From the NCBI GenBank assembly GCA_900552555.1, contig URZW01000002.1, positions 13,760 to 77,759 of the forward strand: a stretch of DNA of 64,000 bases. Direction: 5' to 3'. The position numbers were made by a program, and so were the translations under genes. The DNA comes from an uncultured Clostridium sp. Lineage in GTDB: Bacteria > Bacillota > Clostridia > TANB77 > CAG-508. Below are positions 4,203-42,329 of this stretch, piece after piece (within the stretch, counting starts at the first letter, position 1; each line of letters starts with the position of its first letter). A model generated the notes under the pieces. The model was not told the origin of the DNA. It did not search any database and saw nothing but the letters and a program-made list of their open reading frames with translations.

Positions 4203-4442
4203 TTAAAAATCCTCCTTCATTTGTCTGGAGGTTTTACCCTCCAACATTTTATAATTTTCGGGTAACAAAATTTATAATTAAAATTATAACATATTTTATA
4301 TGAGTTTTACAAGTTATTATACTGTGAATTGTAAAAAACCTACATAAAAAATTAAATAAAAAAAGAAAAAAACTTGTATATTCCCAAAATTTATGATATA
4401 AATACTAGTATAAGAAGAAAGCTACAGAAAGGCGGAATTTTT

Positions 4443-6215: not shown

Positions 6216-6872
6216 ATGGAGGTGAAAATAGAACAAGTGAACCGAAAATTTATATCAAACAGCAATTATGTATTCAGAAAAATATTAAATTCTGAAGATT
6301 GTTTAGGCATCATAAAAAATTTTATAGAAGCAATATTAGACATAAAAATAAAAGAAATAGAGCTAAATCCATATCTGAAACAAAAAGAAAATTATTTACC
6401 ACGCGAAGAAAATTTTGGAATTGCAGATGTAAGAATACATACATATGAAAATGAAGAAATGAATGTAGGAATTCAATTCATAGATGGAATATATGTTCAA
6501 ACAAAAATGCTAATGTACTATTCCCAAATACATCTAAATCAACTAGAATATGGCGATAATAGAGAATTTGCAAAAACAATAACAATAAACTTATTAGATT
6601 TTAATTATTTTTCTTCAAAAGGATGTAAAAAAACAATAAGAATTAAGACAAATGAAGGAGATGTAAGACTTGAAGAGATAGAAATGATATCAATAGAATT
6701 GCCTAAATTCAGATGCTATGACAATGACGATTTGACAGAAATAGAACAATGGCTACAATATTTAAAAGGGTGTGATGAAAACACATTAGAAAAAATAAAA
6801 AGCCAAAACAAATATATAAAAAAATTAGATACACTTGCAGAAAAATATTGGCTTGAAGAAAAAATGGAATAA
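6216..6872 (+). CDS. Rpn/YhgA-like PD-(D/E)XK nuclease family protein (transposase_31-like)
   Basis: Family pattern YVFRKIL...GIADVRI...NVGIQF...YYSQ...ELPKF matches the Rpn layout of Y.FKK...D...IEIQ...ELPKF. Confidence 0.55.
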   Translation: MEVKIEQVNRKFISNSNYVFRKILNSEDCLGIIKNFIEAILDIKIKEIELNPYLKQKENYLPREENFGIADVRIHTYENEEMNVGIQFIDGIYVQTKMLMYYSQIHLNQLEYGDNREFAKTITINLLDFNYFSSKGCKKTIRIKTNEGDVRLEEIEMISIELPKFRCYDNDDLTEIEQWLQYLKGCDENTLEKIKSQNKYIKKLDTLAEKYWLEEKME

Positions 6873-6902: not shown

Positions 6903-9176
6903 TTATCGTTTCTTTAAAATAACTTTTATAACAGTACCTGCATCAACATTAGAACCTTTTGGAGTATCCTGTGAAACAACAGTACCAGTACCTTCAACAC
7001 TAATGTTTAGATTTGCATTTCTTAATTCCGTTGTAGCCTGATATTTACTCTTACCAGTTAAATCTGGAACAGTAGCAGATGTTCTTGTATCTTGGTCATA
7101 TAACATTATTAGAGAACCTTTTGATAAAGAAGCACCAGGCTTTGGAACTTGATCTTTAACTAATGTGCTATTTTTATCTTTAGAAGTAGATATTTTAGCA
7201 GTAAATCCAGCATTTGTTAATATTTTTTCAGCCTCTGCAATAGTTTTATTTCTAACTTCAGGAACTGAAACTAAATCTTCATCATCTGTAGAATCAGCAT
7301 CAGAAGGTATACCCAAGTAAGGCAAAATTTCTGACAACATTTGAGATACAACAGGACCTGCTAATGTACCACCTTGATGGTTACTCTTTGGAGGTTTATA
7401 CAAGTTAAGTAATAGAACAACTTGAGTATCTTCAACAGGAGAAATTGCAACATATGTAGCAACATAACCATCAATATCTTCTCTACCAGCTCTTGGCTCA
7501 GAAGTACCAGTTTTTCCACCAACAGTATAACCTGAAACTCCACCTCTCCAACCAGTTCCATTTTCTACAACAGATTGCATCATAGATTTTACTTTTGAAG
7601 CAGTTTCAGAAGAAATAACCTGTCTTACTTGTTCAGTATCAATATTTGTAACAGCACCAGTATCAGTATTGGTAATAGATTTTACAATTCTAGGTTTCAT
7701 TAAAATCCCATCATTAGCAATTGCAGAAATTGCAGTAATCATTTGCAAAGGAGTAATACTAAAACGTTGTCCAAAAGAATAAGTTGCTCTTTCAACTGGG
7801 ATTACAGTTGACTCCTCTTTAAATATAGAACTAGCTTCTCCAGGTAAATCAACACCTGTTTTATCAAAAAATCCAAAAGATTTATAATATTTATATAATG
7901 TTGCAGTCCCTATTCTAGTTCCTAATTGTATAAGAGCAGGGTTACATGAATTTTCCAAAGCATTTCTTAAAGATTGAGAACCATGTGAACCATCTGTTTT
8001 CCAACAACTTATTTTAACACCATCAACAGTTTCAGAACCTGAACAATAGAAATCACCAGCAACATCTGTACCAGTAATGTTTTCCTCTAAAGCAGTAGAA
8101 GCAGTAATTAATTTAAAAACAGAACCAGGTTCATATAATTCAGAAACAGCCTTATTAGACCACATCTTATAAATGGCATTAGTCTTTTCTTCTGAACTTA
8201 ATGAATTATATGTTTTTGCAAGGAAAGAATTTGGTGTAAAGGGTTGATTTAAATCATAATTTGGATAATTAGCTATTGCTAATATATCACCAGTTTTAGG
8301 ATTCATTACAATACAACTACCACCATTTTCAACATTATTATTATCAACAGCTTGTTGTAGATATTTTTCAACAATTTTTTGAATATTTAAATCAATAGTA
8401 AGGGTCAAATCACTGCCATTTTCAGCTGCAATATATGTTTCTTCAGTATTTGGAATCTCTTCTTGACTAGCACTTTTTGAACTTACAATTTTACCTGGAG
8501 TTCCAGATAAAACATCATCCCATTTATTTTCAATACCAGATAAACCTTGATTATCACTACCACAGGAACCAAGAACCTGAGCAAGAAGAGAATCATTAGG
8601 ATAATATCTTTTTGTATCTTCATCTATATTTATTCCTACAGAAACATTATTTTCATCCATCCATTTTTTTAATTTGTCAACCCTATCTTGGTCAACTTTT
8701 TTTGCTATTGTTTCAACTTTTGATGTACTTGTAACTTTTTTTAAAGTTTCACCATAATCAAGTTCAAATATATCAGAAAGAGCTTTTGCAACTTTTTCTT
8801 TTAAAGCTTGAGTATTATCATTATTTTTTGAATCCTTAATTTTTTCAGGATTTATTGTTATTGTGTCAACAGAAGCACTTGTTGCAAGAGTATGACCAGT
8901 AGAATCATATATAGCACCTCTTTTGGGACTTATTATTTGGTTTATTGATTGTTGATTATATGCAAGTTCTTTTAAATAGTTACCTTGCACAAATTGTAAA
9001 AATCCAATTCTTCCTATCAATATTGCTAGAATTAGAATTATTACTATAAATATTGTTTTAATTTTTTTTGTATATATAAAATTTTGTGATTTGAATTCCG
9101 TGTTTATTTTTGTTATTTTTTTATTTACATTTTTTGTTTTTTTCGATTTGTTTTTCTTATCCAATATTTTCACCAC
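6903..9176 (-). CDS. class B penicillin-binding protein with C-terminal PASTA domains (PBP2x/SpoVD-like transpeptidase)
   Basis: N-terminal TM segment; SXXK (GSVFK), SXN (SCN) and KTG(T) motifs; two PASTA-like repeats at the C-terminus. Confidence 0.85.
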   Translation of the reverse strand: MVKILDKKNKSKKTKNVNKKITKINTEFKSQNFIYTKKIKTIFIVIILILAILIGRIGFLQFVQGNYLKELAYNQQSINQIISPKRGAIYDSTGHTLATSASVDTITINPEKIKDSKNNDNTQALKEKVAKALSDIFELDYGETLKKVTSTSKVETIAKKVDQDRVDKLKKWMDENNVSVGINIDEDTKRYYPNDSLLAQVLGSCGSDNQGLSGIENKWDDVLSGTPGKIVSSKSASQEEIPNTEETYIAAENGSDLTLTIDLNIQKIVEKYLQQAVDNNNVENGGSCIVMNPKTGDILAIANYPNYDLNQPFTPNSFLAKTYNSLSSEEKTNAIYKMWSNKAVSELYEPGSVFKLITASTALEENITGTDVAGDFYCSGSETVDGVKISCWKTDGSHGSQSLRNALENSCNPALIQLGTRIGTATLYKYYKSFGFFDKTGVDLPGEASSIFKEESTVIPVERATYSFGQRFSITPLQMITAISAIANDGILMKPRIVKSITNTDTGAVTNIDTEQVRQVISSETASKVKSMMQSVVENGTGWRGGVSGYTVGGKTGTSEPRAGREDIDGYVATYVAISPVEDTQVVLLLNLYKPPKSNHQGGTLAGPVVSQMLSEILPYLGIPSDADSTDDEDLVSVPEVRNKTIAEAEKILTNAGFTAKISTSKDKNSTLVKDQVPKPGASLSKGSLIMLYDQDTRTSATVPDLTGKSKYQATTELRNANLNISVEGTGTVVSQDTPKGSNVDAGTVIKVILKKR

Positions 9177-9270
9177 TCTTTTGTTAAAAATTATAATATT
9201 ATTTTATATTAAACATATTTAAAAATCAATAAATTTCTTAAAATTTAAAGAAAATCAGTTATTATATAGT

Positions 9271-9738
9271 TACAATTCACATTTTTTACAAAAATTTGTG
9301 TGTAAGTTGCTTCCTTAAGGGTTATATATATTTGGTATTGTATCCGCTTGAATGAAGTAAAAAATAGAAAATTTTAAATAAAAAAATGAGGAATGCTCAC
9401 GGAAAAAATGTATATGTATATGGTTTGATAATTTTCTCGGTTCAATACGCAACATAAGAATTTCTAAAATAAATTAATGGCACCCTTCCACTTAGTCCTC
9501 ACTTCGTTCGACGTGAACCCTTTCCATTAATTTATTTAAGAAATTCTAATATTGCTCCAATCACATTCGAAAATGATAAAACCATATACATATACATTTT
9601 TAGCCTGAGTGAGAGAGGCTCAGTTTTTTATTTTAGATTTTCTTTTTGAACGTAATGAACAGGATACAATACCAAATATATATAACCCTTAAGGAAGCAA
9701 CTTACACATCAATTTTTGAAAAAATGTGAATTATAAAA
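9271..9738. repeat. composite palindromic intergenic element, copy 1 (about 75-bp outer inverted repeats around a 2-fold-symmetric core)
   Basis: Positions 9273-9345 are the reverse complement of 9662-9736. The core recurs at 41150-41520 and 34775-34985. Confidence 0.85.
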
Positions 9739-9773
9739 CATTTTTAAGATAAAAAAAGAAAGGAAAATTATTT

Positions 9774-11312
9774 ATGATATCAAATGTAAAAACAATATCA
9801 CTAAGTGGAATAGAAGGAAACTTAGTAGAAGTACAAACAGACATAACAGGAGGACTACCAACCTTCGAAATAGTAGGCTTACCAGATACAAGTGTAAGAG
9901 AATCAAAAGAAAGAATAAAATCAGCAATAAAAAACTCCAACATAGAATTTCCAAGCAGAAGAATAATAATAAACTTAGCACCAGCAAGCACAAAAAAAGA
10001 AGGAACAAGTTATGACCTACCAATAGCAATAGGAATACTATTAGCACAAAAAGAAATAATCAACCAAAAACTAGAAAACACAATATTTATAGGAGAACTA
10101 TCACTAGACGGAAAAATAAACAGAATAAATGGAGTATTACCAATGTGTATAGAATCAATGAACCTAGGAATAAGAAAAGTAATATTACCAAAAGCAAACG
10201 AAAGGGAAGCAGCAGTAGTAAAAAATCTAGAAATAATAGGAGTAAACAATTTACAAGAAGTAATAGACTATCTAAATGGAAATAAAAAAATAGAAAAAGC
10301 AGAAGTTGACATACTAAAAATATTTAATAAAAAAAATAAAGAACAATTTGATTTTTCAGAAGTAAAAGGACAAGAAAATGTAAAAAGAGCCTTAGAAATA
10401 GCAGCAGGAGGAGGCCACAATTGTATACTTATAGGACCACCAGGTTCAGGAAAAACAATGATTGCAAAAAGAATACCAACAATATTACCAGATTTAACAT
10501 TTGAAGAATCATTAGATATAACTAAAATACATAGTGTATCTGGAATTTTAGACAATAGTATTGGAATAGTAACAAAAAGACCATTTAGAAGCCCACATCA
10601 TACAATATCACCAACATCAATGATAGGAGGCGGAAGAAATCCAAAACCTGGTGAAATAAGCTTGGCACATAATGGAGTACTATTTTTAGACGAATTACCA
10701 GAATTTAATAGAACAACACTAGAAGTTTTAAGAGGACCATTAGAAGAAAAACAGGTAACAATATCAAGATTATATTCAAAAGTAGAATACCCATCAAACT
10801 TTATGCTTATAGCAAGTATGAACCCATGCCAATGTGGATATTATGGAAGTGAAGAAAAAGTGTGCAAATGTTCAGAACAATCAATTGAAAGATATTTAAA
10901 CAGAATTAGTGGACCGTTATTAGATAGGATAGATTTGCATGTTGAAGTAAAACCAGTAAAATACCAAAAACTAAATTCTAATATAAAACCAGAAACATCA
11001 AATCAAATAAAGCAAAGAGTTAATAAAGCACGAAGAATACAATATTTAAGATATAAAGATACGGGAATATACTCAAATGCAGAGCTTACTCCACAAATGA
11101 TAGAAAGATACTGTAAAATAGACGAGCAATCAAAAAAGATATTAGAACAAGCATTTAATAAATTAGGGTTAAGTGCAAGAGCATATTCAAGAATTCTAAA
11201 AGTTGCAAGAACAATAGCGGATTTGGAAGAAAAAGAAAATATTGAAAAACAGCACATTTTAGAAGCAATTCAATATAGAAACTTAGATAGAAAATATGGA
11301 GATAAATTTTAA
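9774..11312 (+). CDS. comM: YifB/ComM family Mg-chelatase-like AAA+ ATPase
   Basis: N-terminal MISNVKTISLSGIEGNLVEVQ..., Walker A GPPGSGKT, C-terminal Mg-chelatase domain. Confidence 0.9.
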   Translation: MISNVKTISLSGIEGNLVEVQTDITGGLPTFEIVGLPDTSVRESKERIKSAIKNSNIEFPSRRIIINLAPASTKKEGTSYDLPIAIGILLAQKEIINQKLENTIFIGELSLDGKINRINGVLPMCIESMNLGIRKVILPKANEREAAVVKNLEIIGVNNLQEVIDYLNGNKKIEKAEVDILKIFNKKNKEQFDFSEVKGQENVKRALEIAAGGGHNCILIGPPGSGKTMIAKRIPTILPDLTFEESLDITKIHSVSGILDNSIGIVTKRPFRSPHHTISPTSMIGGGRNPKPGEISLAHNGVLFLDELPEFNRTTLEVLRGPLEEKQVTISRLYSKVEYPSNFMLIASMNPCQCGYYGSEEKVCKCSEQSIERYLNRISGPLLDRIDLHVEVKPVKYQKLNSNIKPETSNQIKQRVNKARRIQYLRYKDTGIYSNAELTPQMIERYCKIDEQSKKILEQAFNKLGLSARAYSRILKVARTIADLEEKENIEKQHILEAIQYRNLDRKYGDKF

Positions 11313-12173
11313 TGAAAATAGAAATAGAAGATTCAATATATCCAGAAAAATTAAAAAGAGTAAAAAATCCTCCTAAAACTTTATATGCAAATGGAAACAT
11401 AGAGCTATTAAAAACAAATCGGAATATCTATAATAGGTTCTAGAAGACCAACTAAATATGGAGAAAGAATGACAAAAAGGTTTGCTAAAGAATTAAGTTT
11501 ATATGGATTAACAATAATTAGTGGAATGGCAGAAGGGATAGACAGTTTGGCACATACTACGATTTTAGAAAATGAAGGAAATACAATTGCAGTATTACCA
11601 TCTGGATTTAACAAAATATTTCCATCAAAAAATAAAAAGTTATATCAACAAATATTAGATAATAATGGACTTGTTATAAGTGAATATCAAGAAAATGAGG
11701 AGGCAACATCAAAAACATTTATTGAAAGAAATAGAATTGTAGCTGGTTTATCAATGGGAACATTAGTAGTGGAAGGAGGATATAGAAGTGGAACAGGTGT
11801 AACTGCAAGAATAACAAAAGAATTAGAAAAAAATTTATTTTGCATACCATCAAGCTTAGAAAATCCAAAAGGATTTACACCAAATAAATTAATACAAAAA
11901 GGTGCATTTTTAGTTACACAAGTAGAAGACATTATAGAAAAATATTCAGAATTAAATTTAATAAAATTACAAGTTCAAGAACAGAACAAAAAAATTGTTG
12001 AACCAGAGTTTCAAAAAATTTATGATATTTTAAGTTATGAAGAATCAATACATATTAATGAAATAACCCAAAAATTAAATTTATCAATTAGTGAAGTAAA
12101 TGAAAAACTAATGATGCTAGAACTTGAGGAAAAAGTAGTATCTCTTCCAGGAAATAATTATAAAAAATGTTGA
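11312..12173 (+). pseudogene. dprA: DNA processing protein DprA/Smf, interrupted by a frameshift near 11408-11420
   Basis: Frame 2 encodes MKIEIEDSIYPEKLKRVKNPPKTLYANGNIELLKTN then hits a stop at 11441. The next frame continues KQIGISIIGSRRPTKYGE...GMAEGIDS... as canonical DprA. The ATG overlaps the comM stop (taATGa). Confidence 0.65.
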
Positions 12174-16956: not shown

Positions 16957-17060
16957 TAATTTTTAAATAAAAAGTATACTTTATAACAAGTATGCTTTTT
17001 TGGTTAGTTACCGTATAATAGTTACAATTCACGGCCTTAGAAATTGTTTTCAAAAATAAG

Positions 17061-21756: not shown

Positions 21757-21768
21757 TTAACATAAAAC

Positions 21769-21797
21769 TTGAAAGCTGATATAAATTGTAGTATAAT
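21769..21797 (+). promoter_or_regulatory. consensus sigmaA promoter TTGAAA-N17-TATAAT upstream of the patatin gene
   Basis: ttgaaa 21769-74, tataat 21792-97. Confidence 0.6.
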
Positions 21798-21847
21798 ATA
21801 GGTAGTTTAAAGTAATAAGAATAGTTTATATCATAGGAGGAAGACAG

Positions 21848-22579
21848 ATGAAAAAAATTAATTTAGCTATTCGGGGCGGAGGAGTAAAAGTCCCGGCTAT
21901 AGGAGTTATGAAGACATTAGAGGAAGAGCAGATAGAAATATCTGGATATTCCGGCACCAGTATTGGCGCTATAATTGCCACATTAGGTGCAATTGGAACC
22001 CATGCAGACGAAATACTGACACAGGTACAAAAGTATGTAGTTCAGTATTCAGATGCTAGCAAGTTAAAAGGAGGCCAAGGCAGTCGAATAATCGAAGATA
22101 CAGTAAATGAATACTGTGACAACATGAAGTTTAAAAATTTATCTAAAGAACTGTACATTGTTGCAAATCAAGGAAGTTTACTGTTTCCAAAAGAATTCGT
22201 ATTTAGCAAAAAAACAACCCCTGAAGTAACATTAGGAGAGGCATGCAGAGCAAGTTGTAGCTTTCCGATTGCATATGAACATTATCACATGAAAATAAAT
22301 GGAAAGAATTACAAATTCTGGGATGGAGGCATGTGTACTAATCCTATAATTCCATCAGATGGATTTACGGTATTAGCAACCTTTAAAAAGGAAAAGGAAA
22401 ACCTGAAATCCAGATATGTCAATGCATGGAAAGCGCCAGAAACACAGGCAGACTTCGTAATAAAACCCAATGTATATATGGGGACCTTTGGTACTCCGGA
22501 GGACATTGCAGAAGCAGCAAAGATAGGATATGTTTTTGCAAAAAAAAGAATGGAGGAATTACTCCGTTTAATAAGATAA
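21848..22579 (+). CDS. patatin-like phospholipase
   Basis: Glycine-rich oxyanion loop GGGVK, GxSxG (GTSIG), DGG (WDGGM). Confidence 0.8.
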   Translation: MKKINLAIRGGGVKVPAIGVMKTLEEEQIEISGYSGTSIGAIIATLGAIGTHADEILTQVQKYVVQYSDASKLKGGQGSRIIEDTVNEYCDNMKFKNLSKELYIVANQGSLLFPKEFVFSKKTTPEVTLGEACRASCSFPIAYEHYHMKINGKNYKFWDGGMCTNPIIPSDGFTVLATFKKEKENLKSRYVNAWKAPETQADFVIKPNVYMGTFGTPEDIAEAAKIGYVFAKKRMEELLRLIR

Positions 22580-22585
22580 AACACA

Positions 22586-22626
22586 GGGTGGACAAAGGCA
22601 AAACTTTTTCCACCCCATGTTTTTGC
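22586..22626 (+). terminator. Rho-independent terminator (gggtgga...tccaccc + T-run)
   Basis: 7-bp GC-rich stem followed by catgttttt. Confidence 0.65.
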
Positions 22627-22750
22627 AAAAATGTATTAGAAAGTAAAAGCATATAACAAAACAATAATTTTTAAAAAACTAAGAAGGATTTATGTAAAAT
22701 AGGTCGAATATTATATATATATATGTTTATTTGAAAGAAAGAGAGGAAAA

Positions 22751-33883: not shown

Positions 33884-34756
33884 ATGAAATTAAAAATGAA
33901 ATTGGGATTGGCATTATCTGGAGGGGGAATAAGAGGAATAGCACATGCAGGAGTATTAAAAGCATTAGAAGAAAATAATATAAAAATAGATGCAATAGGA
34001 GGTACAAGTTCAGGTAGTATAATAGCAACACTATATGCTATGGGATATTCACCATATTATATTTACATATTGTTCAAAAAATATGCAAAAGACTTAGTAA
34101 ATCAAAATGCAATATCAAAAGTCACAAACATAGGAAACTTCATGGCAAATAAAAAAACAAATTTTCAAGGATTTTATTCTGGAGAAGAAATAGAAGAATG
34201 TTTTAATAATATAGCATCACGAAAAGGAATAAAGACAATATCAGATATAAAAATGCCAATTGTAATTCCAACAGTAGATGTTCAAAATTCAAAAAAGTAT
34301 ATAATTACAAATAATATACCAGAAAAGATTTGTACAAATACAGAATATATAAATAATATAGAAATTGGGAAAGCAATTAGAGCAAGCTGCAGTTTTCCAG
34401 TAGTTTTTAGTCCATGTGAGTATAATGAACATAAATTTTTGGATGGTGGAATATTAGATAATTTTCCAACAATTGAAGTAAGACATCAAGGTGCTGATAA
34501 AATGTTAACGGTTAATTTTAAGGCAGATGATATTGAAGAGAGTAGCAATATTATGGATATTGTTATGAGAACTATTGATATTATGGGAAATAAGATATCA
34601 GAAGAAAATATAAGTAATAGTGATATGGTTTTGACTATTCAAACCGATAAAACGGGTTTGTTGGAAACTGAAAAATTGGATGCTTGTTATAAATATGGAT
34701 ACAGGCAAACTATAAATCAAATTGATAAAATTAAAGATATGATAAATGATAATTAA
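33884..34756 (+). CDS. patatin-like phospholipase (second paralog)
   Basis: SGGGIRG, GTSSGS (GxSxG), DGG. Confidence 0.8.
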   Translation: MKLKMKLGLALSGGGIRGIAHAGVLKALEENNIKIDAIGGTSSGSIIATLYAMGYSPYYIYILFKKYAKDLVNQNAISKVTNIGNFMANKKTNFQGFYSGEEIEECFNNIASRKGIKTISDIKMPIVIPTVDVQNSKKYIITNNIPEKICTNTEYINNIEIGKAIRASCSFPVVFSPCEYNEHKFLDGGILDNFPTIEVRHQGADKMLTVNFKADDIEESSNIMDIVMRTIDIMGNKISEENISNSDMVLTIQTDKTGLLETEKLDACYKYGYRQTINQIDKIKDMINDN

Positions 34757-34774
34757 TATTAATATAATTAATGA

Positions 34775-34985
34775 TATGTACTGTTGATACTATATATGTT
34801 TTTATAATTTACTCGGTTCAATACACAATATAAGAATTTCTAAAATAAATTTATGGCACCCTTCCACTTAGTCCTCACTTCGTTAGACGTGAACTCTTTC
34901 CATAAATTTATTTAAAAAATTCTAATATTGCTTCAATCACATTCGTAAATTATAAAAACATATATAGTATCAACAGTATTCATAA
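34775..34985. repeat. palindromic element copy 2 (truncated core bounded by 28-30 bp inverted repeats)
   Basis: ctgttgatactatatatgtttttataat / attataaaaacatatatagtatcaacag flank a core about 90% identical to 9436-9580. Confidence 0.8.
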
Positions 34986-35077
34986 TTAATAATTAGTAAT
35001 ATTAAATTCCGGAAGTATCAAATGTAATAAATTTGAATATAATATACAAAATTATTATACAGAAAAGAGGAAAAGTT

Positions 35078-41034: not shown

Positions 41035-41149
41035 CTCATAAATTTGGGCTAGTATATTTTATGTCGAAAAATGTGGAATTGTTACAATTTGTTGAATTCA
41101 AAAGAATATTGCATTATAATAGTTTGATTGCTAAGTATTGGAAGTTGCT

Positions 41150-41520
41150 ATATTCCTATGGAGACATCTTTTTTGTAAGTATGTATTGTTCATTACGTTC
41201 AAAAAGAAAATCTAATATAAAAAAATAAGACTCTCTCACTCAGGCAAAAAATATATATGTATATGGTTTTAGAATTTTTGAATGTGATTGAAGCAATATT
41301 AAAATTTCTTAAATAAATTAATGGAAAGAGTTCACTTTAGTGGAAGGGTGCCATTAATTTATTTTAGAAATTATTATGTTGCGTATTGAACCGAAAAAAT
41401 TATAAAACCATATACATATATATTTTTTCCGTGAGCATTCCTCATTTTTTTATATAATATTTTCTATTTTTCACTTCAATCAAACATACATACTTACAAA
41501 AAAGATGTCTCCCTATGAAT
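41150..41520. repeat. palindromic element copy 3 (inverted orientation, full core, different flanking inverted repeats)
   Basis: Core reverse complement is about 90% identical to 9348-9640. Flanks: cctatggagacatcttttttgtaagtatgtat / atacatacttacaaaaaagatgtctccctatg. Confidence 0.85.
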
Positions 41521-41645
41521 ACAAAACTTTCAACACTTAATAAATCCAAATACCACAAAATTACTTGCAAAATCTGTAAAATGTTATATAATATATACAC
41601 ACAGGCAAAATAGAAAACAAAACCTGAAGAAAGGGATGCAATAAA

Positions 41646-42329
41646 TTGGAAAAAAAGAACTTAGAAGAACTAGAAAAAAATATAGGATATAAATTTAAAA
41701 AAATAGAATTATTACAAAATGCACTAACACACACATCATATGCATATGAACACGGAATACAAAGCAACGAAAAACTAGAATTTTTAGGAGACAGCATACT
41801 AGAATTTGTATCAAGTGAATATATGTACAATAAATATTTAAATTTAAAAGAAGGACAATTAACAAAAGTAAGAGCAACAGTAGTATGTGAAAAAAGTTTG
41901 TACAAAATAGCAACAGCACACAACTTTGGAAAATTTTTATATTTAGGAAAATCAGAAATAAAATCAGGTGGAAATAAAAGACCTGCAATATTAGCTGATA
42001 GTGTAGAAGCAGTTATTGCAGCAATTTTTATAGATGGTGGACTAGAACCTGCAAAAAAATTCATCATAGAAAACCTAAAAAATGAAATAGAAGTTGCAAC
42101 AAAACATGTAGGAGAAAAAGATTATAAAACTGTATTGCAAGAAGAATTGCAAAAAAATGGAGATGTAAAAATAGAATATACAATAATAAAAGAATCAGGA
42201 CCAGACCACAACAAATCATTTGAAGCAGAGGTTGCCTTAAATGGAAAAATTTTAGCAACAGGAAAGGGAAAAAGCAAAAAAGAAGCAGAGATGCAGGCTG
42301 CCAAAAAAGCATTAGAAAACAAAAACTAA
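41646..42329 (+). CDS. rnc: ribonuclease III
   Basis: RNase III signature ERLEFLGDSILE; C-terminal dsRBD. Confidence 0.9.
   Translation: MEKKNLEELEKNIGYKFKKIELLQNALTHTSYAYEHGIQSNEKLEFLGDSILEFVSSEYMYNKYLNLKEGQLTKVRATVVCEKSLYKIATAHNFGKFLYLGKSEIKSGGNKRPAILADSVEAVIAAIFIDGGLEPAKKFIIENLKNEIEVATKHVGEKDYKTVLQEELQKNGDVKIEYTIIKESGPDHNKSFEAEVALNGKILATGKGKSKKEAEMQAAKKALENKN

Follow-up and report, generated by a model that had tools for sequence, protein, structure and literature searches.

What kind of element forms the near-complete palindrome in front of comM in an uncultured gut Clostridium, and does it encode anything? The window analyzed here is a 64,000-nt stretch of contig URZW01000002.1, and the palindrome occupies 468 bp of it (9269-9736; copy 1). 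[quoted passage not shown] The first answer is upheld by terminal inverted repeats (TIRs), 8-bp target-site duplications (TSDs), dispersed intergenic copies, an empty site and the lack of conserved coding. The 9269-9736 segment is very probably a full-length non-autonomous DNA transposon, a foldback-type MITE of ~455-480 bp, found in uncultured, low-GC gut Clostridia of a lineage akin to Clostridium sp. CAG:575. The whole palindrome is mobile, ends in GTTACAATTCACAGC, enters AT-rich intergenic targets with duplication of 8 bp and is non-coding.

Copy 1 (+ strand) is organized as two outer arms around a core. The outer arms (9273-9345 and 9662-9736) pair at 69/73 positions with one indel, as expected from the near-perfect 73-bp inverted repeats first described, and nested arm pairs reported by a repeat finder reach inward to a central unpaired stretch, in keeping with the described symmetric core of inner arms and central loop. 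Folding, which had been proposed as a check, gives a single hairpin on both strands of a 481-nt segment (-193.5 and -201.4 kcal/mol), compared to ~-78 to -82 kcal/mol for dinucleotide shuffles (z ~ -21 to -22; 0/100 shuffles equal it). The left TIR (9269-9345, +) starts with the tip GTTACAATTCACA(t), which is kept in the family and in a wider superfamily, and continues as a variable outer arm; the right TIR (9662-9736, +) ends in a slightly degenerate tip, GTGAATTATAA versus the consensus GTGAATTGTAAC. The core (9346-9661, +), recognized by its identity among copies, is an imperfect palindrome with fixed asymmetric internal loops. Two of its internal-loop motifs, TCGGTTCAATAC on the left (9437-9448, +) and CTCCAATCACATT on the right (9555-9567, +), are not complementary to each other and are invariant in an alignment of the ~470-bp family with its 250-260-bp relatives. 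The apical region (9481-9523, +), CACCCTTCCACT…GTGAACYCTTT with a small central hairpin, is likewise asymmetric by fold and copy alignment and is unpaired in the predicted fold.

The family to which copy 1 belongs is dispersed among related gut Clostridia. An exact-pattern scan, limited to one genome per species, yields 25 loci from ~9 metagenome-assembled genomes (MAGs) of uncultured human-gut Clostridia and Clostridium sp. CAG:575, with up to ~11 copies per MAG; the proposed copy count thus returns a dispersed repeat. ENA gut contigs that bear the same comM gene match the window exactly; the G+C content of the window is 24-32%, with a skew of the leading-strand type. The alignment holds 24 distinct sequences, mostly full-length copies. 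The distinct full-length copies (n = 22, 455-480 bp) come from related gut Clostridia MAGs and align end to end, copy 1 with the 21 others. Since this homology usually spans the 455-480 bp and includes the outer inverted repeats, the mobile unit is the whole 468-bp palindrome, and the palindromic flanks, first taken to be separate from the element, are its own long TIRs. The family profile matches copy 1 over positions 1-476 at 465 bits in the forward and 170 bits in the reverse direction, and all copies share this polarity (~450 bits forward vs ~170 reverse). Because all copies have one polarity, the differences between the two arms appear to be inherited from a progenitor.

The ends of the copies carry the marks of transposition. 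Most copies share the termini GTTACAATTCACAGC…GCTGTGAATTGTAAC, and the 8-bp TSD is matched at 8/8 positions in loci L012, L013 and L014 and at 7/8 in L002, L003, L005, L016 and L023. All copies are intergenic (none lies inside an open reading frame, ORF), and no shared motif is found in the left flanks, 5' of the insertions. Prokaryotic MITEs are described as <500 bp, with TIRs and direct repeats, AT-rich intergenic targets, stem-loop transcripts and large variation in size (PMC10969869). Small size without coding, shared TIRs, a TSD of fixed length and dispersed, polymorphic copies are all found here. By its sequence, the 468-bp element family is an undescribed foldback MITE family, of a kind that is already known in prokaryotes.

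Sites in relatives show that insertions are polymorphic. The PBP–comM spacer, retrieved from relatives picked by ComM identity (window 9177-9773, L029:9811-10000, L033:9614-10000 and L035:9907-10000), has four states. At 80% ComM identity (L035/L036), the spacer is 94 bp, empty and has AAATTTTG once; at 83% (L033), a 249-bp element that shares the family termini sits between AAACTTTA and AAATTTTA (duplication 7/8); at 92-93%, a 60-bp palindrome with GTTACA…TGTAAC tips is at the position of copy 1; and in the window, the spacer holds the 468-bp copy 1. Thus, one spacer carries three different GTTAC-tipped elements in three lineages, of which two are clear members. Either insertions favor this spacer as a hot spot or its occupants have replaced one another repeatedly; the 60-bp palindrome may belong to the family, derive from a member by deletion or be a footprint. 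A further polymorphism is observed in the sister-species MAG L007, where a full-length element (L007:4843-5313) with no counterpart in the window occupies the place of a gene for a 243-aa patatin-like lipase (window 21848-22579; region 21757-22667); the two genomes thus differ in gene content, with the element at the junction. No clean empty site is present among the fetched MAG loci, of which only L007 overlaps the window, with the patatin gene on the window side in place of the element. Copies that vary between close relatives and adjoin promoters or stop codons are, as judged from their positions, candidate causes of strain differences in expression, and are useful as strain markers.

Beyond this family, the terminus is shared by a larger superfamily. 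When metagenomes are scanned for the 16-nt terminus, at least 120 loci are returned. Among the matches listed, 22 distinct elements of 43-369 bp are bounded by the terminus, on contigs of 22-47% G+C. In this set, the 8-bp duplication is complete (8/8) in L141, L097 and L039, including one 44-bp element, and reaches at least 6/8 in 13/22 elements vs 6% in shifted controls. Most of these elements match the ~470-bp family at the tips only, and many are not palindromic inside. Thus, the tips appear sufficient for movement, and the foldback body seems to be the trait of one lineage. Elements of ~250-260 bp (L135, L145, L067 and L033) are intermediate: they combine the tips with short arms and the central module, the part that copy 3 of the window also keeps. 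The invariant internal motifs are present in the ~470-bp family and these 250-260-bp relatives despite different apical hairpins; as a trait of the whole superfamily they are rejected, since they are absent from its other members and confined to this clade. The superfamily, defined from the sequences solely by a 15-bp terminus and an 8-bp duplication around interiors of 43 to ~480 bp, is previously undescribed. Elements bounded by this terminus are common in uncultured low-GC gut bacteria of human, termite and rumen metagenomes. To mask the repeats of the family and superfamily would avert false calls of small ORFs and sRNAs, and the same repeats would account for contig breaks in metagenome assemblies.

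Several other occurrences of the terminus are noted. At L041:632-687 and L078:2830-2885, the 16-nt tips (GTTACAATTCACAGCCTGGCCGC…) bound a perfect palindrome of 56 bp without a clear duplication (4/8); as these contigs are 44-47% G+C, the terminus seems to reach beyond low-GC hosts. An end of the form GTTACAATTCACAGCCGATTTTAAAATATACATATATGTAGGGGCGAGCA… is ~100 nt from the ends of many contigs (L053, L054, L072, L080, L091, L129, L138, L148 and L151), which are low in G+C (27-34%) and apparently of termite gut; such a position is typical of repeats that are present in high copy number and break assemblies. An outward ORF at this end stops at a TAA inside the tip. The 16-nt terminus is also present once in each of 75 viral contigs (L157-L231), all of 35-40% G+C. 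No clear second terminus is detected in these 75 contigs, where one partner with 2 mismatches is 753 bp away, and the viral 16-mer is probably an unrelated segment of a conserved phage gene.

Within the window, the family is represented by two further copies and two probable remnants. Copy 2 (41132-41539, -; profile positions 46-437, 337 bits) comprises the core with outer arms that are diverged yet mutually complementary across its self-complementary span. The predicted inverted core copy at 41150-41520 is recovered at 41151-41520, with 87% identity to copy 1 over 321 nt (BLAST segment 41182-41483, 87%). Copy 2 is between the genes for YabG and RNase III, with its end 126 nt upstream of rnc. 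As RNA, it would form a ~200-bp hairpin near the gene (41646-42329) of an enzyme that cuts hairpins, which is probably a coincidence. Copy 3 (34753-35005, +; by BLAST, profile and self-complementarity) retains the central module only, within short palindromic arms of its own; it corresponds to the truncated form without the ORF noted earlier (34793-34965, 92% over 172 nt; BLAST segment 34793-34964), resembles the ~260-bp subfamily and has a patatin-like gene and a cysteine desulfurase gene as its neighbors. The terminus search adds a solo left terminus, GTTACAATTCACGG (17021-17034, +), upstream of the adhE promoter, and a solo right terminus, CTGTGAATTGTAAA (4322-4335, +). Neither has a partner and both are absent from the orthologous spacers of relatives (L029 and L036 for the left terminus); both are probably leftovers of lost copies. 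The central apical hairpin is lost in many copies of the family, with at least three junctions (CTC/TCG, CTA/TCG and CTA/AAG); the deletion removes the central 17 nt (e.g., window 41340-41330; L018:3393-3698; alignment columns 241-258). This pattern suggests that the center of the palindrome was deleted repeatedly and independently.

Movement of such elements would require an enzyme supplied in trans. A transposase that makes 8-bp staggered cuts and recognizes the 15-bp tips is the presumed agent, and the long complementary arms and asymmetric core would be traits inherited from transposing copies rather than kept up by the host site by site. In 37 ORFs of the window, Pfam and NCBIfam scans detect no transposase, integrase or reverse transcriptase, which agrees with the original prediction apart from one related match, an Rpn/PDDEXK_2 'putative transposase' gene at 6216-6872. 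Synteny of this gene holds in every relative, even where the spacer is empty, and other copies have no such gene nearby; given its lack of enrichment near the elements and its conserved place beside the empty site, it is rejected as the mobilizing enzyme. No homolog of the element or its central motif is found in collections of plasmid, phage and viral sequences. In the fetched loci, the extra termini are remnants only, pairs of termini 1.4-2 kb apart occur at chance frequency with housekeeping genes inside, and the large ORFs beside single termini or between distant pairs are housekeeping genes. The GTTACAATTCACAGCCGATTTTAAAATATACATATATGTAGGGGCGAGCA… end of the termite-gut contigs is rejected as the end of an insertion sequence (IS), as its outward ORF matches just a 31-aa fragment. 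The GTTACAATTCACAGC terminus is not found in the papers searched, where the matches are unrelated primers.

Four observations weigh against the MITE reading. First, the 8-bp duplication of copy 1 is unclear, at 3/8, or 7/8 with an alternative boundary. Second, recognizable tips are not found in copies 2 and 3. Third, searches of the window, of fetched loci totaling ~1.1 Mb and of collections of plasmids, phages and viruses detect no autonomous element with matching termini. Since IS copies usually interrupt metagenome assemblies, the absence of an autonomous partner is weak evidence; long-read gut genomes offer a concrete place to seek the missing transposase. Fourth, conservation is much higher in the core than in the arms adjoining the termini, whereas MITEs usually show the opposite; this hints at a sequence-specific role.

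The evolution of arms and core is informative for the alternatives that follow. The consensus hairpin of 22 copies has 162 pairs, with 97.3% of cells paired. Compensatory changes, on both sides of a pair, occur in 68/162 pairs vs 32 after column shuffles and 18-26 when partners are slid, and the outer arms hold most of the variation. Copies from one genome share 96-97% identity in the core, 100% in the apical loop and only 77-79% in the outer arms; for copies from different genomes, the values are ~90% for the core and ~60% for the outer arms. The outer arms diverge ~5-fold more than the core. Mismatches in 1381 outer-arm cells are G·T (32), A·C (26) and other (37), about equally rare; thus, pairing is strictly Watson-Crick on both strands with no tolerance of G·U, which argues against selection on an RNA fold. 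A structured RNA is expected to show covariation with tolerated G·U pairs; covariation is strong here, but the G·U tolerance is lacking. The complementarity of the outer arms is instead as expected from copying or selection at the level of DNA.

Compensation does not appear to take place at the resident site. Loci L012 and L022 are probably orthologous, with left flanks 94.75% identical, although the short right flank available for L022 does not match. The two elements differ at 27/471 positions, in arms and core alike and at about the rate of the flank; in paired columns, 10 of the changes are one-sided and one is double. Compensation in place is thus rejected on this one probable orthologous pair, where changes are mostly one-sided. 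As resident copies decay without compensation, the covariation and the conservation of the core belong to the lineage of transposing copies. The inverted repeats of a single element are known to undergo conversion (PMC3004938), template switching is documented for imperfect palindromes (PMC7202029, PMC8604942), and either process could keep the arms matched. Quickly diverging complementary arms beside a conserved asymmetric core provide a clean natural data set on the matching of inverted repeats.

A role for the resident copies in gene regulation is compatible with the MITE and is the alternative that survives best, although it is unlikely. Here, the host would keep the copies as a domesticated module, a bidirectional terminator or insulator or an RNase III site. 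On the MITE reading itself, a transcript across the element is predicted to form a ~230-bp hairpin with its 3' side running into a U-run, and copies may thus act between genes as bidirectional stops of transcription or as RNase III substrates. The hairpin and T-run described earlier are present within the right arm at 9605-9633 (+), where a terminator scan finds 1 site vs 0.1 expected; this putative terminator is largely kept in sequence across the family. Terminator-like MITEs such as SPRITE are known (PMC10969869), which counts in favor of such a role. So does the placement of the copies: all are intergenic, and often the left end is 1-25 nt past a stop codon and the right end ~100 nt ahead of the start of the next gene; between tandem genes, 13 copies run in the direction of the genes and 3 against it, no copy is in a convergent spacer, and 22/31 copies are co-oriented with the local GC skew. 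These biases are modest, some of the copies are perhaps not independent, and the biases may reflect a target preference or the purging of harmful insertions. The decay of L012/L022 at about the flank rate, mostly uncompensated and in core and arms alike, reveals no purifying selection at a resident site, and positions differ between close relatives. Copy 1 itself looks disruptive rather than useful, as it lies between upstream promoter-like sites (9169-9210), the likely comM promoter, and the comM start codon. Since the comM spacer is 94 bp when empty and copy 1 is past the promoter-like sites, the comM leader of this strain would, from its sequence, hold the full hairpin and T-run.

A foldback MITE as described here leaves three features to account for: the arms that diverge yet stay complementary, the invariant asymmetric core motifs TCGGYTCAATAC and CTCCAATYACATT, and the single spacer with three elements. 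An improbable reading is that the asymmetric core (TCGGYTCAATAC, CTCCAATYACATT and the apical region) is the module needed for spread, and that the arms are made symmetric anew with each move, e.g., by single-stranded foldback or TIR-to-TIR conversion. This would explain the fast-diverging complementary arms, the fixed polarity and the lack of a linked transposase and, if true, would represent an unusual structure-dependent mobilization by a host-resident enzyme.

A related but less probable proposal is that the element moves as a single-stranded DNA hairpin by the action of a host-resident enzyme, after the REP–RAYT, IS200/IS605 and attC–integrase model, with the Rpn/PDDEXK_2 protein, encoded 2.3 kb from copy 1, perhaps as the enzyme. 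Strict Watson-Crick covariation of the stem beside invariant unpaired motifs, the fixed polarity, a moderate strand bias and the failure to find a linked transposase would suit this mode of movement, and the spacer near the Rpn gene is the one hit by three GTTAC-tipped elements. The target sites speak against it. An 8-bp TSD signals that a DDE-type enzyme made staggered double-strand cuts; no TSD is left by HUH/Y1 systems. REP/RAYT or IS200/IS605 movement predicts no TSD and a fixed motif, and the copies have instead 8-bp TSDs and no conserved motif in the flank 5' of the insertions. In addition, the interiors of other superfamily members are non-palindromic, so that a hairpin is not needed for movement, and Rpn-like genes are at one syntenic locus only, are not enriched near the elements and are present where the spacer is empty.

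The alternative of the original prediction, in which the core is an sRNA or type-I toxin-antitoxin locus with a promoter at 9348-9377, a ~270-nt transcript, a hydrophobic 23-aa peptide and an end at the T-run, and in which the flanks are merely carriers, draws in part on a small ORF. The 23-codon ORF exists (9386-9457, +), and its counterpart in copy 2 differs as described by V9I, L14F and one synonymous change; the near identity of the ORF in these two copies, the hairpin and T-run downstream of it and the -35/-10-like box visible in the sequence are what the proposal has in its favor. The ORF is not a conserved gene. Across the 25 copies that keep the region, the start position is ATG in 5, CTG (the commonest) in 12 and another triplet in 8, and in most copies the frame is cut short at 11-14 codons by a 2-nt indel; only the two window copies, in this genome, have all 23 codons with an ATG, and copy 3 is entirely without the ORF. 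The mini-ORF is thus rejected as a gene, and the break of the frame in most copies favors a purely structural MITE, the outcome named for this case in advance. No Shine-Dalgarno sequence is found at the proper distance from the 23-codon ORF. The TTGAAT-N18-TTTTAA box is present at 9348-9377 as noted, but it is not called by the promoter scan, in which the region has about as many promoter-like sites as chance predicts (5 vs 4.8 expected). Rfam gives no match in the whole window at gathering thresholds, and a permissive search of the element returns at best a plastid 3' untranslated region motif at chance level (E-value 0.32). With no conserved ORF, no promoter above chance, no Rfam family and no tolerance of G·U pairs, an sRNA or toxin locus is not supported and is the least credible of the alternatives.

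The foldback MITE family of copy 1 shares features with several known systems. The closest likeness is to prokaryotic MITEs such as QMITE1/QMITE2 of Coxiella, which are also <500 bp, non-coding, AT-rich and intergenic, with TIRs, 7-9-bp direct repeats and predicted long stem-loop transcripts (PMC10969869). The range in size is also similar, at 39-400 bp for QMITE1 (PMC10969869) and 43-480 bp here. By contrast to these MITEs, the elements described here have a near-complete palindrome as their body, an interior more conserved than the arms, no known parent IS and uncultured gut Clostridia as hosts. The eukaryotic Foldback (FB-type) transposons are similar in that the arms make up nearly the whole element, the strand folds back and the arms evolve in concert; they are usually much longer, with arms of tandem subrepeats, and the analogy is of architecture only, with no kinship. 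Correia elements (NEMIS) of Neisseria are RNase III substrates as hairpin transcripts, can carry promoters or terminators and have an internal IHF site. Like the family of copy 1, they are short, palindromic, intergenic MITEs with long hairpin transcripts, and their IHF site offers a possible parallel to the invariant internal motifs. Correia elements differ in their 100-155 bp size and TA duplication, compared to ~470 bp, an 8-bp duplication and an unrelated sequence for the present family. REP/BIME–RAYT and IS200/IS605-derived palindromes are also abundant, intergenic, mostly without an adjacent transposase and moved in trans; REP sequences are 20-40 nt, GC-rich and move as single strands without target duplication, whereas the present elements have 15-bp TIRs and 8-bp duplications, and no RAYT or TnpA gene is seen in the scanned ORFs. 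The RUP, BOX and SPRITE repeats of Streptococcus pneumoniae and bcr1 of Bacillus cereus are likewise non-coding intergenic repeats of low-GC Gram-positives, some of them terminator-like, but have other sequences, sizes of ~100-160 bp and duplications of TA, TTTAT or none, and none has the GTTACAATTCACAGC terminus.

Other features of these loci are noted in passing. Downstream of comM, dprA is split into a 43-aa and a 234-aa ORF in this strain and the 92-93% relatives (window 11312-12173; L026:4539-5400); in farther relatives it is a single gene of 286-288 aa. The split dprA may be a truncated or interrupted competence gene beside a comM that has the element in its leader. In L035, the gene order of the window is replaced after the sortase gene (L035:14574-21539) by a serine recombinase and several genes without a family match, which probably represent an integrated element. 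An unrelated repeat is found at L013:5127-5366 and L025:2777-2980, with units that start with TTACCAGTGGGGACACTCATGA at 35-bp spacing and have inverted partners. The leucyl-tRNA synthetase of the window (58927-61743, -; 938 aa) has weak Nudix-hydrolase-like matches (E ~5e-5) at residues 377-503, which may be an inserted domain.

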